NCBI RefSeq assembly: GCF_056746865.1
Contig: NZ_CM163382.1
Length of the DNA stretch: 64,000 nucleotides
Direction: 5' to 3' (one strand)
Below, piece by piece: positions 30,601 to 33,600 of the stretch (position 1 is its first letter; the number at the start of each line of letters is the position of its first letter). Made by a program: the position numbers.

Positions 30601-33600
30601 TGGTCGTTGCTGGCATTAGGCGTTGCAGGCTGGATGCGTTACGTCAGCGGCGTTGATGATGCCGGAAATGCCATTGATGTTCGCGATCCGCTTAGCGATA
30701 AAATTCGCGAACTTGTTGCGGGCAGTAGCAGTGAACAACGCGTAACCGCCCTGCTTTCCCTGCGTGAAGTTTTCGGTGATGATCTGCCAGATAACCCGCA
30801 TTTTGTGCAGGCTATCGAACAAGCCTGGCAACAAATCGCACAATTCGGCGCGCATCAGGCGCTATTAAACACCCTCAAAATTTAACGATTTCTGCGGTTA
30901 AAGCGGATGAAGCTCGCCTTCGTCCGCTCCCCCCTTCTCTTTTCTGCCTTTTTTAGCCAGGATTAACGCTCAGTTAACTTACCAGAGTATTGCGGAGCCG
31001 TTGTGACCAGGACCAACCTCATCACCGGTTTTCTCGGCAGCGGGAAAACCACGTCGATTCTTCATCTGTTAGCCCATAAAGATCCCAACGAAAAATGGGC
31101 GGTACTGGTTAATGAATTTGGGGAAGTCGGAATTGATGGTGCTTTGCTCGCCGATAGCGGCGCATTGTTGAAAGAGATCCCCGGCGGCTGCATGTGCTGC
31201 GTTAATGGTTTACCCATGCAGGTAGGATTGAATACCTTACTGCGTCAGGGAAAACCAGACCGCTTGTTGATAGAGCCGACCGGACTGGGTCATCCGAAAC
31301 AGATCCTAGATCTCTTAACCGCGCCCGTGTATGAACCGTGGATAGATCTGCGCGCCACGTTGTGCATTCTCGATCCACGCCTGCTGCTGGACGAAAAAAG
31401 CGCCAGCAATGAAAACTTCCGTGACCAGCTGGCTGCCGCAGACATTATTGTCGCCAATAAATCCGACCGTGCGACGCCCGAAAGTGAGCAAGCGCTACAG
31501 CGCTGGTGGCAGCAAAATGGTGGCGATCGGCAATTAATTCACAGCGAGCATGGGAAAGTTGACGGTCATCTTCTGGATTTGCCGCGTCGCAATTTAGCCG
31601 AGTTGCCCGCCAGCGCCGCACATTCTCATCATCATAGCGTGAAAAAAGGGTTAGCAGCGTTAAGCCTGCCAGAGCATCAACGCTGGCGTCGCAGTCTGAA
31701 CAGCGGACAAGGGCATCAGGCCTGTGGCTGGATATTCGACGCTGATACGGTATTCGACACCATTGGCATTCTGGAATGGGCGCGACTTGCACCGGTGGAA
31801 CGCGTCAAAGGCGTGATGCGTATTCCCGAAGGGCTGGTGCGAATCAACCGTCAGGGCGATGACCTGCACATTGAAACGCAAAACGTTGCGCCACCGGACA
31901 GTCGTATTGAGCTGATTTCCAGCAGCGAAGCTGACTGGAATGCCTTGCAGAGCGCGCTGTTGAAGCTTCGTTTAGCGACTACCGCGTAAGGTTGCCTGCG
32001 TTTTTCAGTAAGATAATTAGAGAAAATATGATTAAAAATTTGCCGCAAATAGTGTTGTTGAATATTGTCGGCCTCGCGCTGTTTCTTTCCTGGTATATTC
32101 CCGTTAATCATGGATTCTGGTTGCCGATTGATGCGGATATTTTTTATTTCTTTAATCAGAAACTGGTCGAAAGTAAGGCCTTTTTGTGGCTGGTTGCATT
32201 GACCAACAATCGCGCTTTCGACGGTTGTTCTCTGCTGGCGATGGGAATGTTGATGCTGAGTTTCTGGCTGAAAGAAAACGCCCCTGGCAGACGACGTATC
32301 GTGATTATTGGTCTGGTCATGCTATTAACTGCAGTGGTATTAAACCAGCTGGGTCAGGCATTAATTCCTGTAAAACGGGCCAGCCCAACATTGACTTTTA
32401 CCAATATTAACCGCGTCAGCGAACTGCTCTCTGTCCCCACGAAAGATGCCTCACGAGATAGCTTTCCCGGCGATCACGGTATGATGCTGCTTATTTTTTC
32501 GGCATTCATGTGGCGTTATTTCGGCAAAGTTGCAGGCCTTATCGCCCTTATTATTTTTGTGGTTTTTGCATTTCCCAGAGTAATGATTGGCGCACACTGG
32601 TTTACTGACATCATTGTAGGTTCGATGACCGTGATATTGATCGGTTTGCCCTGGGTGTTGCTGACGCCATTAAGTGATCGATTAATCACCTTTTTTGACA
32701 AATCACTACCGGGAAAAAACAAACATTTCCAAAACAAATAACTCACAGTAATTAACATCATCAGGGTTATTTTTATAGTGAGGATAATCCTGATGATGCG
32801 CACCGTGCTTTCATCCATCGCGCGCAAAAATCATTCTCTAAGTAAATGAATGGATTGCATGCGTTTCACTCAATCGTACTTTAATTGACCAATCCCGCTT
32901 ATTAACTTTCTGTATCACTTTTTCTTATAAAAAATCATGTAAAACCGCTCGCCAAGACCGCACCAATCGGGTAATCTCGAACTCGTTTTGCCTCGGCGGT
33001 AGATTATCCTCACAGCATATAATTTTGTGCGTTAGTCCACAGATTTGGCCTTAAGGAATTGTTTCAACATGCCCAGGTAATTAGTCTCGTGTCGCTTGGC
33101 ATTTTTTTATAACGATATTTGTCGTTAAGGACTTCAAGGGAAAACAAACAACATGGTCAAATCTCAACCGATTTTGAGATATATCTTGCGCGGGATCCCC
33201 GCGATTGCAGTAGCGGTTCTGCTTTCTGCATGTAGTGCAAATAACACCGCAAAGAATATGCATCCTGAGACACGTGCAGTGGGTAGTGAAACATCATCAC
33301 TGCAAGCTTCTCAGGATGAATTTGAAAACCTGGTTCGTAATGTCGACGTAAAATCGCGAATTATGGATCAGTATGCTGACTGGAAAGGCGTACGCTATCG
33401 TCTGGGCGGCAGCACTAAAAAAGGTATCGATTGTTCTGGTTTCGTACAGCGTACATTCCGTGAGCAATTTGGCTTAGAACTTCCGCGTTCGACTTACGAA
33501 CAGCAGGAAATGGGTAAATCTGTTTCCCGCAGTAATTTGCGTACGGGTGATTTAGTTCTGTTCCGTGCCGGTTCAACGGGACGCCATGTCGGTATTTATA

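Follow-up and report, generated by a model that had tools for sequence, protein, structure and literature searches.

What occupies the long spacer between lpxT and mepS in Escherichia coli, and what does the strong hairpin at its lpxT end do with no U-tract behind it? The window analyzed is a stretch of 64,000 nt (NCBI RefSeq assembly GCF_056746865.1, contig NZ_CM163382.1), and all positions are window coordinates unless marked as MG1655. With the last nucleotide of the lpxT stop codon at 32741 and the mepS ATG at 33153, the spacer runs from 32742 to 33152 and is exactly 411 nt long, as a first-pass annotation of the sequence had stated. That annotation also ranked it among the longest non-coding stretches, and over the first 50 kb of the window psuK-fruA (423 nt) is the one longer gap between annotated genes. 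It was likewise right to call the spacer ORF-free, in that no ORF of at least 60 aa lies wholly inside; a 60-aa minus-strand ORF (33081-33263) extends into mepS and was left out of the ORF conservation scoring. The spacer fully contains four ORFs of 23-32 aa; as candidate small proteins (at least 20 aa) they were rejected, since no more than 5 of 81 orthologous sequences keep any one of them intact. The spacer is therefore effectively non-coding. The description of 32800-33150 as AT-rich fits only moderately, with G+C fractions of 0.30-0.49 in 80-nt windows. The gene order and a near-constant spacer are kept in 79 of 80 Enterobacteriaceae loci (the other, L076, has no lpxT match), and the spacer measures 410-426 nt in most of them. 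It is largely already explained: an lpxT transcript-end stem-loop is followed by the published control region of mepS (Table 1).

Table 1. Features of the lpxT-mepS interval, with window positions and the basis of each.
Feature	Position	Strand	Details and basis
lpxT coding sequence	32028..32741	+	RefSeq annotation of the identical strain and of MG1655
lpxT 3'-end stem-loop	32756..32798	+	Folding, inverted-repeat search, covariation in 81 species, variation within Escherichia
Steady-state RNA 3' end	32801 (MG1655 2269627)	+	Term-seq (Adams et al., 2021, Supplementary file 1)
C-rich, G-poor untranslated tract	32810..32983	+	GC skew
Invariant block, ATCAC-N4-TTCTTATAAAAAA plus AAAA	32914..32946	+	Conservation; -70 to -38 of P2
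mepS promoter P2	32949..32977	+	-35 TCGCCA (32949-32954), 17-nt spacer, -10 TAATCT (32972-32977)
Long mepS leader from P2	32984..33152	+	TSS 32984/32985, about 168 nt
TGTGCG-N5-CCACA palindrome/hairpin	33026..33041	+	Invariant; in the long leader, centred at -60.5 from P1
mepS promoter P1	33059..33087	+	-35 TTGTTT (33059-33064), 17-nt spacer, -10 TAGTCT (33082-33087)
Short mepS leader from P1	33094..33152	+	59 nt; 90-100% conserved across genera
Leader hairpin TAACGAT-ATTT-GTCGTTA	33110..33127	+	7 bp; in MFE and centroid folds
OxyS pairing site GACTTCAAGGG	33130..33140	+	Overlaps the ribosome-binding site; C-18 is 33135
mepS leader RNA 3' ends	33147..33149 (MG1655 2269973, 2269975)	+	Adams et al., 2021, Supplementary files 1 and 3

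The inverted repeat begins 15 nt past the lpxT stop codon and is built as first described, with arms of 15 nt each (32756-32770 and 32784-32798) and 13 nt between them. The arms are 93% complementary, a G.T being the sole non-Watson-Crick position, and the repeat ranks seventh of the 27 inverted-repeat pairs in the 64-kb window that meet the search settings. Folded as plus-strand RNA it has a dG of -23.7 kcal/mol, compared with -6.95 +/- 2.29 in shuffled sequences (z=-7.3), and none of 200 shuffles was as stable. The lower stem (CATCATCAGG/CCTGATGATG, 10 bp) is invariant among the sampled E. coli genomes; the upper stem is weaker and rich in A/U and G.U pairs.

The first-pass annotation had left the conservation of this hairpin to be looked at, and about 80 species of Enterobacteriaceae have a stem-loop at this same position behind lpxT. 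In an unfitted MAFFT alignment of 81 species, 81.5% of the cells of a 12-bp helix are paired, compared with 31-47% when the partners are slid; cells with double changes number 106 vs 36-71, and the covariation score is 0.358 vs at most 0.142. Compensatory double changes occur in all 12 core pairs, and none of 500 shuffles reached the observed pairing or covariation values. The hairpin is real and under selection. The sequence directly 3' of it, from 32799 to 32900, is poorly conserved.

A palindrome may also work as DNA: it could bind a protein, or it could be one copy of a REP/BIME- or MITE-type repeated or mobile element. The near-perfect inverted repeat would suit such a role, as would the form usual in other genera (CAGGGATCG-TTTT-CGATCCCTG), which is sequence-conserved and carries two GATC sites, but the E. 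coli form has lost these sites. Stem sequences vary among genera while their pairing is kept, and therefore fit an RNA or DNA structure and not a base-specific operator. A REP/BIME or other repeated element, which would be multi-copy, was rejected: the sequence is single-copy in E. coli, with a median of one place per genome in 5425 genomes, and does not resemble the REP copies in the window (inverted repeats I1 and I8). We give a DNA-level role almost no credence.

At a canonical intrinsic terminator, RNA is released within the U-tract, some 7-9 nt past the stem. The lpxT hairpin resembles such a terminator in being a stable stem-loop directly after the gene, and it has no U-rich tract of 7-8 nt: as first noted, no T-run follows, the next 8 nt (CGCACCGT) containing one T. 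The upstream sequence (GTAATTAA) likewise has no A-tract. A terminator scan did not call this hairpin and did call the mepS terminator at 33765-33790. Published Term-seq data, converted with an MG1655-to-window offset of 2236826 (checked on lpxT, mepS and the mepS terminator), place an RNA 3' end in the sequence CGC, 3 nt past the last stem pair, with 1323 reads in LB at OD 0.4 (Adams et al., 2021); this end was called in one of three conditions only, and its read count is low. Its 'orphan' class is due only to its distance of 60 nt from the stop codon, which exceeds 50 nt, and it can be assigned to lpxT. Its place at +3 from the stem is not inside a U-tract. The first impression, that no intrinsic terminator is obvious here, is thus borne out for E. 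coli by the missing U-tract, yet the 3' end mapped at +3 and the orthologues with a T-run (below) make it the transcript-end element of lpxT.

Peters et al. reportedly put forward a protection hypothesis for 3'-terminal stem-loops that have no U-tract. For E. coli transcripts that are Rho-dependent or processed, Dar and Sorek (2018, NAR 46:6797) described 3' stem-loops without a U-tract, which define the transcript end and protect it; these transcripts are trimmed by PNPase and RNase II, with C exceeding G downstream. The lpxT hairpin is like this class in several respects: a stable stem-loop stands soon after the stop codon and a few nucleotides before a precise 3' end, U content after the stem is low, there is no upstream A-tract, and C exceeds G downstream, as it also does in genera whose hairpin has a T-run. 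Unlike this class, the lpxT site is absent from the Rho map of Adams et al. (2021).

We consider it likely that the hairpin is the 3'-end stem-loop of the lpxT mRNA, with Rho action or processing downstream of it, and that mepS control sequences make up the remainder of the spacer. The hairpin would fix the steady-state 3' end of a monocistronic lpxT mRNA, and would most likely shield that message from 3'-to-5' exonucleases. Because it has no U-tract, the hairpin alone probably gives no efficient release of RNA polymerase, which would run on into the untranslated C-rich, G-poor tract; transcription would be halted there, presumably by Rho, or the transcript cut, and the tail would then be trimmed back to the stem. 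From about 32905 on, the mepS control region follows, comprising a UP-like A tract, P2, P1 and a conserved leader. Transcription of lpxT is independent of yeiR (PMC2904496).

Orthologous hairpins differ in what follows the stem. A T-run (at least 6 T in 8 nt) is present in 13 of 81 sequences, namely four Kluyvera-type sequences, Siccibacter, Klebsiella spallanzanii, two Atlantibacter, Dryocola, Cedecea, Pseudocitrobacter and two borderline Enterobacter/Lelliottia sequences. Buttiauxella is a further case, in which the T-run is located inside the called stem, and the K. pneumoniae tail has 5 T in 8 nt. Most of the carriers belong to more divergent genera (Kluyvera, Klebsiella, Atlantibacter, Siccibacter, Cedecea and Buttiauxella); Escherichia, Salmonella, Citrobacter and most Enterobacter lack the T-run. 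The terminator scan called one of three tested T-run hairpins. Since several related genera carry a T-run, the same orthologous site appears to have changed terminator type during evolution, in a direction that we infer. Dar and Sorek (2018) proposed that terminators could change type through altered U content.

The T-run orthologues resemble true intrinsic terminators, which raises the alternative that the E. coli hairpin terminates intrinsically too, though weakly and non-canonically, with release at or just past the stem and with neither Rho nor a U-tract. Its stability and its position 15 nt past the stop codon would fit, as would the lack of a Rho region here in Adams et al. (2021) and the remark of Dar and Sorek that inefficient intrinsic terminators with a Rho backup are possible transition states. 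The E. coli copy differs from the canonical type, however, in its single T in 8 nt, the absence of a call in the scan, the upper half of its stem (rich in A/U and G.U pairs) and an end at 3 nt instead of 7-9 nt past the stem. On balance we regard intrinsic release as unlikely.

An untranslated C-rich tract of 185 nt is a typical Rho substrate. Positions 32799-32983 contain 49 C and 26 G, the GC skew is -0.31 over 149 nt downstream of the hairpin, and its minimum of -0.5 (32870-32949) ranks among the lowest 0.34% of all 80-nt windows across the 64 kb. On composition, the tract listed in Table 1 is a possible candidate Rho-loading region. A comparative test, in which C>G skew was expected only in genera without a T-run, found it equal in genera with and without one (p=0.67). 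Because the skew is equally strong in T-run genera, it cannot tell the mechanisms apart and may have another source, for example sequence upstream of the promoter. In Adams et al. (2021, Supplementary file 2), the table of Rho termination lists no region within MG1655 2269400-2269999; weak lpxT expression may make that table insensitive here.

Transcription might not end at all, with lpxT reading through into mepS and the 32801 end arising by endonucleolytic cleavage and trimming to the hairpin. The missing U-tract and the empty interval in the Rho table would both agree with this, as would the shared strand and conserved synteny of the two genes, and the hairpin would work equally well as a 3' barrier for such a product. 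Against read-through, the mepS mRNAs are accounted for by their own two promoters, and the 185-nt C-rich tract lies in the path of the polymerase; we hold read-through to be very unlikely.

Hfq-dependent sRNAs carry a U-tail. An unannotated small RNA, which the first-pass annotation had allowed for, could come from the 3' UTR of lpxT, with its end at the hairpin, or could start from a promoter-like sequence (TTAACA-16-TATAGT, 32752-32779) that overlaps it. The discrete 3' end at 32801 and the 10 of 12 positions in which this sequence matches the sigma-70 consensus speak for it. However, TATAGT lies within the loop and is unconserved outside Escherichia, one promoter-like site was found where 2.9 are expected by chance, and 32799-32900 is poorly conserved. 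The hairpin has no U-tail of the Hfq type. The one TSS table covered (Mendoza-Vargas 2009) lists no TSS from lpxT to P2, and the only ones it gives for mepS are at -169 and -59. A search of 32400-33500 against Rfam (E at most 10) returned only sub-threshold, spurious matches to eukaryotic miRNA and snoRNA models. Besides 32801, the sole discrete RNA ends in the spacer are those at 33147/33149 in the mepS leader. The small-RNA suggestion therefore finds no support, and we judge it highly improbable.

The other first-pass suggestion, a mepS promoter and a long leader, is supported and had already been published. Two promoters serve mepS, with TSSs at -169 and -59, and Thomason 2015 is said to be among the sources for them. 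The P2 elements are conserved across genera, and so are the P1 hexamers, which were placed in this analysis from the mapped TSS. UP elements have a consensus position of -59 to -38. The invariant block upstream of P2 includes, judging by that position, a putative UP-element-like A tract together with an upstream motif. Table S1 of Mendoza-Vargas 2009 gives the spr TSS at -169 with a -35 of CGCTCGCCA, a -10 of GGTAATCT and a spacer of 17, and 5'-RACE placed the second TSS at -59 ('Gcttggcattttttt', window 33094). The P2 TSS carries a 1-nt ambiguity between -169 (PMC2760140) and the G146/G37 numbering of PMC10798246, where P2 and P1 and the long and short mepS mRNAs are described. The published TSS contexts, with CGCTCGCCA, 17 nt, GGTAATCT and Gcttggcattttttt, were all found at the expected window positions. 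Published Cappable-seq supplements list no positions in this interval.

A terminator-like match at 32967-32985 is a weak 5-bp stem overlapping the P2 -10 box; it was rejected as chance because the region holds four such matches, with 1.5 +/- 1.4 expected. CRP regulation of mepS was also set aside, a literature search having found no support for it. The TGTGCG-N5-CCACA palindrome has four invariant pairs; the two pairs that flank them show double changes (8 and 4).

Within the leaders, the hairpin at 33110-33127 is nearly invariant, and its top pair covaries (4 double changes). The global folds of the long and short leaders are no better than those of shuffled sequences (z=-0.64 and -0.75, respectively), and only local hairpins are supported. 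Pairing of the long-leader 5' end (32985-32993) with the SD region, which would act as an anti-SD, was rejected, with 84% compatible cells and zero double-sided changes. The OxyS pairing site is G37-G47 of the short mRNA, and a C(-18)G compensatory mutant restores repression (PMC10798246); it was placed in window coordinates here by counting from the TSS at 33094. The site (GACTTCAAGGG) is nearly invariant in 37 genera, with two columns varying. The mepS (spr) P2/P1 promoters and OxyS leader in the literature (Mendoza-Vargas 2009; Elgrably-Weiss 2024, RNA 30:124) belong to the identical locus and show no differences: the window matches their -35 and -10 boxes, both TSS contexts, C(-18) and the 11-nt G...G pairing site.

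Little OxyS is to be expected in LB cultures without stress. This bears on the leader 3' ends at 33147/33149, which lie 4-6 nt upstream of the mepS ATG and were called in all three growth conditions with a Rho score of 0.63 ('No'; Adams et al., 2021). That study (eLife 10:e62438) found 3' ends just past three known sRNA pairing sites, including those of eptB (MgrR) and ompA (MicA). The mepS ends resemble these cases in lying 7-9 nt 3' of the OxyS site; unlike them, mepS is not discussed in that paper. Because OxyS would be scarce without stress, another cause, such as RNase cleavage beside the initiating ribosome, is as likely. There is also a slim chance, by analogy, that a discrete sRNA of 54-56 nt extends from the P1 start (33094) to 33147/33149 and acts as a decoy or sponge for OxyS or another sRNA. 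If so, it would carry both the invariant hairpin at 33110-33127 and the OxyS-complementary site; sponge or decoy action is described for other 5'-UTR-derived RNAs (Adams et al., 2021).

The long gap thus matters little: it combines a routine lpxT transcript-end hairpin with the mepS control region, which the literature has already analyzed in detail. For mepS, this analysis adds a map of conservation across genera, together with the 33110-33127 hairpin and the TGTGCG-N5-CCACA motif. The cross-genus series presents one orthologous hairpin both with and without a U-tract, the type of switch proposed by Dar and Sorek (2018), and the lpxT hairpin may be a natural example of one orthologous terminator alternating between intrinsic and factor-dependent modes across the Enterobacteriaceae. 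The series could be used to test how loss of the U-tract affects the termination mechanism and the insulation of the downstream mepS promoters.

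The genes yeiR, lpxT, mepS (formerly spr) and pdeN all lie on the + strand of the E. coli chromosome (see the table; window position = MG1655 [NC_000913.3] position - 2236826, an offset verified at the stop codon of lpxT, at both ends of the mepS reading frame and at the terminator that follows it). The lpxT-mepS spacer measures 411 nt, as the first-pass annotation reported, and its place among the longest non-coding stretches is borne out: of all gaps between annotated genes over the window's first 50 kb, only one is longer. RefSeq annotates no feature within it. It can be called ORF-free in that, of the 81 orthologous sequences, no more than 5 keep any one of the four ORFs wholly inside it (23-32 aa) intact. 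The spacer occurs once, at 95-100% identity, in 5425 of 5426 complete E. coli genomes; in genome H30 the match is limited to its distal half. Loci from 80 different Enterobacteriaceae species were retrieved with MepS as handle, and lpxT is upstream of mepS in 79 (locus L076 gave no lpxT match), with spacer lengths mostly of 410-426 nt even at LpxT identity of ~65%. Conservation along the spacer is very uneven: the hairpin 5' arm is ~80% conserved, 32799-32900 is near random, four strongly conserved blocks follow, and identity is 90-100% from 33075 to the mepS ATG.

Features of the lpxT-mepS region, in window coordinates
Feature	Position	Remark
lpxT	32028-32741	+ strand
Spacer	32742-33152	
lpxT hairpin arms	32756-32770, 32784-32798	15 nt each, one G.T position, 13 nt between
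lpxT 3' end	32801	MG1655 2269627 (+)
Strongly conserved blocks	32905-32935, 32948-32990, 33017-33045, 33057-33064	conservation profile
Invariant block upstream of P2 -35 box	within 32905-32946	CTTTCTGTATCAC-N4-TTCTTATAAAAAA...AAAA
A-rich invariant block	32922-32946	-62 to -38 of P2
P2 start	32984	TSS -169
Start of long leader	32985-32993	GUUUUGCCU
TGTGCG-N5-CCACA	33026-33041	
P1 -35	33059-33064	TTGTTT, 17 nt to -10; own placement from TSS and conservation
P1 -10	33082-33087	TAGTCT; own placement from TSS and conservation
P1 start	33094	TSS -59
Short-leader hairpin	33110-33127	TAACGAT-ATTT-GTCGTTA
OxyS site	33130-33140	GACTTCAAGGG, G37-G47 of short mRNA
C(-18)	33135	
SD region	33137-33146	AGGGAAAAC
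3' ends before mepS	33147, 33149	
mepS	33153-33719	+ strand
mepS terminator	33765-33790	called by scan

The inverted repeat noted after lpxT is present, and as + strand RNA it forms a stem of 20 pairs, counting G.U, at -23.7 kcal/mol, against -6.95 +/- 2.29 for shuffled sequences (z -7.3; 0/200 as stable) and -14.2 for the - strand. It indeed lacks a T-run, with one T in the 8 nt past the stem (CGCACCGT), and a terminator scan left it uncalled although the mepS terminator was called. Among the Escherichia sequences examined, the lower 10-bp stem never varies apart from a single base in the divergent lineage L002. The internal position 32766 is polymorphic: E. coli strains have G (a G.U pair) or else T or C (a mismatch), and E. 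albertii has A (an A-U pair). One complete genome, E. coli 20A24 (NZ_CP147044.1; L086), carries an IS1 inserted in the 3' arm at the equivalent of ~32789.

The hairpin is a conserved structure. A stem-loop occupies the equivalent site after lpxT in nearly every species, most commonly as CATCAGGGATCG-TTTT-CGATCCCTGATG; the Escherichia hairpin has the lower stem of this form and a longer, weaker upper part. In Salmonella arizonae, Kosakonia, Dryocola, Cedecea, Kluyvera, Siccibacter and Atlantibacter the stem sequences differ and pairing is kept. Covariation was assessed for a 12-pair helix on a plain MAFFT alignment fitted to no structure, with partners slid by 1-3 columns as control: standard pairs filled 81.5% of cells (31-47% for slid partners), 106 cells were changed on both sides (36-71), and the covariation score was 0.358 (at most 0.142). 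Double changes occur in all 12 pairs, and 0/500 shuffles reached the observed values. The hairpin form most common in other genera, CAGGGATCG-TTTT-CGATCCCTG (L005-L077, e.g. locus L033, 2107-2134), has two GATC (Dam) sites within the stem, both lost in the Escherichia hairpin.

Counting T within 8 nt past the last G-C pair, 6-8 T follow the orthologous hairpin in 13/81 sequences (four Kluyvera-type, Siccibacter, Klebsiella spallanzanii, two Atlantibacter, Dryocola, Cedecea, a Pseudocitrobacter, and two borderline Enterobacter/Lelliottia). K. pneumoniae has 5 T of 8, Buttiauxella has a T-run inside the called stem, and the count is 0-5 T in Escherichia, Salmonella, Citrobacter, most Enterobacter, Kosakonia, Phytobacter and Leclercia. 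Of three T-run loci put through the simple terminator scan, one had its hairpin called (L061, 12 pairs then TTTTTTTT); the scan's stem and loop definition accounts for the two misses. Since the T-run forms cluster in more divergent genera, a canonical terminator is suggested, though not proven, to be ancestral, its U-tract having been lost in the Escherichia-Citrobacter-Enterobacter part of the family. Terminators could, as has been noted, switch class in evolution simply via altered U content (Dar and Sorek, 2018; PMC6061677).

Term-seq places an RNA 3' end 3 nt past the last stem pair (...CCTGATGATGCGC|ACCG; LB, OD 0.4, 1323 reads), called in one of three growth conditions and classed as "orphan" solely for its distance of 60 nt from the stop codon, the limit for "primary" being 50 nt (Adams et al., 2021, Supplementary file 1; PMC7815308). 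The table of Rho termination regions in that study has no entry in MG1655 2269400-2269999. As yeiR and lpxT do not share a transcript (Herrera et al., 2010; PMC2904496), the lpxT message that ends at the hairpin is monocistronic. Rho-terminated E. coli transcripts have precise steady-state 3' ends directly past stable stem-loops without U-tracts, left after PNPase and RNase II have trimmed RNAs whose termination sites are diffuse and lie further downstream, with C exceeding G downstream (Dar and Sorek, 2018). The lpxT hairpin shares this anatomy, and the 185 nt of untranslated RNA downstream hold 49 C vs 26 G, with local GC skew down to -0.5 (lowest 0.34% of 80-nt windows in 64 kb). On the strength of both features, we read the hairpin as most likely defining and protecting the lpxT 3' end, while polymerase would stop further downstream, most likely through Rho. 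C exceeds G (about 21% vs 13%) over 32799-32950 and orthologous regions in all 81 species, with or without a T-run; the skew is as strong in T-run genera as in others (p = 0.67) and does not discriminate between mechanisms. It is possible that the hairpin is instead a weak non-canonical intrinsic terminator, or that transcripts read through into mepS and are then cleaved and trimmed. Past the hairpin, compositional bias is kept across species while sequence is not.

The suggestion that the spacer houses an unannotated small RNA found no support: an Rfam scan of the region returned nothing, the TSS table of Mendoza-Vargas et al. (2009; PMC2760140) lists no start at the hairpin, and the hairpin lacks the U-tail that Hfq-type sRNAs carry. 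A promoter-like TTAACA-16-TATAGT overlapping the hairpin is a single match where chance alone predicts 2.9 for the region, and its -10 falls in the loop, which is unconserved outside Escherichia. The only other discrete RNA ends in the spacer are two 3' ends 4-6 nt before the mepS ATG, found in all three Term-seq conditions and scored as not Rho-dependent (PMC7815308). Their distance downstream of the OxyS pairing site is 7-9 nt, matching the pattern of 3' ends shortly past sRNA sites in other targets (PMC7815308). Together with the P1 start they imply a 54-56-nt leader fragment containing the OxyS site, which has a low probability of being an accumulating, active small RNA.

The anticipated mepS promoter and long leader, by comparison with published data, are real: beyond the lpxT hairpin, what remains of the spacer is the known mepS control region. 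Two spr TSSs were mapped (PMC2760140, Table S1), -169 by nine 454 reads (-35 CGCTCGCCA, -10 GGTAATCT, 17-nt spacer) and -59 by 5'-RACE (Gcttggcattttttt). These promoters, named P2 and P1 (Elgrably-Weiss et al., 2024; PMC10798246), dominate in exponential and stationary phase, respectively (PMC10798246, citing Thomason 2015); the long-mRNA numbering (G146) of that paper puts the P2 start at 32985, 1 nt off the -169 value. The conserved blocks are accounted for by the boxes of P2 and P1 together with the leaders and the ribosome-binding site. The A-rich invariant block spans -62 to -38 of P2, a position typical of UP elements, and its A tracts form a putative UP element.

OxyS pairs with the mepS ribosome-binding site, as validated by the compensatory mutant C(-18)G; translation of the long mRNA is 5.6-fold lower and its repression by OxyS weaker, the site being predicted to be sequestered there (PMC10798246). 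The 7-bp hairpin directly 5' of this site in the short leader is present in the MFE and centroid folds alike and hardly varies between genera, with covariation at its top pair. TGTGCG-N5-CCACA is invariant in 37 genera, with two covarying flanking pairs (8 and 4 double changes). It may fold as a hairpin within the long-leader RNA or be a DNA site whose CRP-like core, TGTG-N8-CACA, has its centre at -60.5 relative to the start of P1; no literature tying mepS to CRP was found. Pairing is possible between the SD region and the initial 9 nt of the long leader (84% of cells compatible across genera). This pairing shows no compensatory changes and is unsupported by covariation; if true, it would account for the weaker translation of the long mRNA.

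The original observation is thus confirmed and its interpretation partly supported. Overall interest is low: the region comprises a routine end element of lpxT, an undescribed example of a well-known kind, and the already published control region of mepS.
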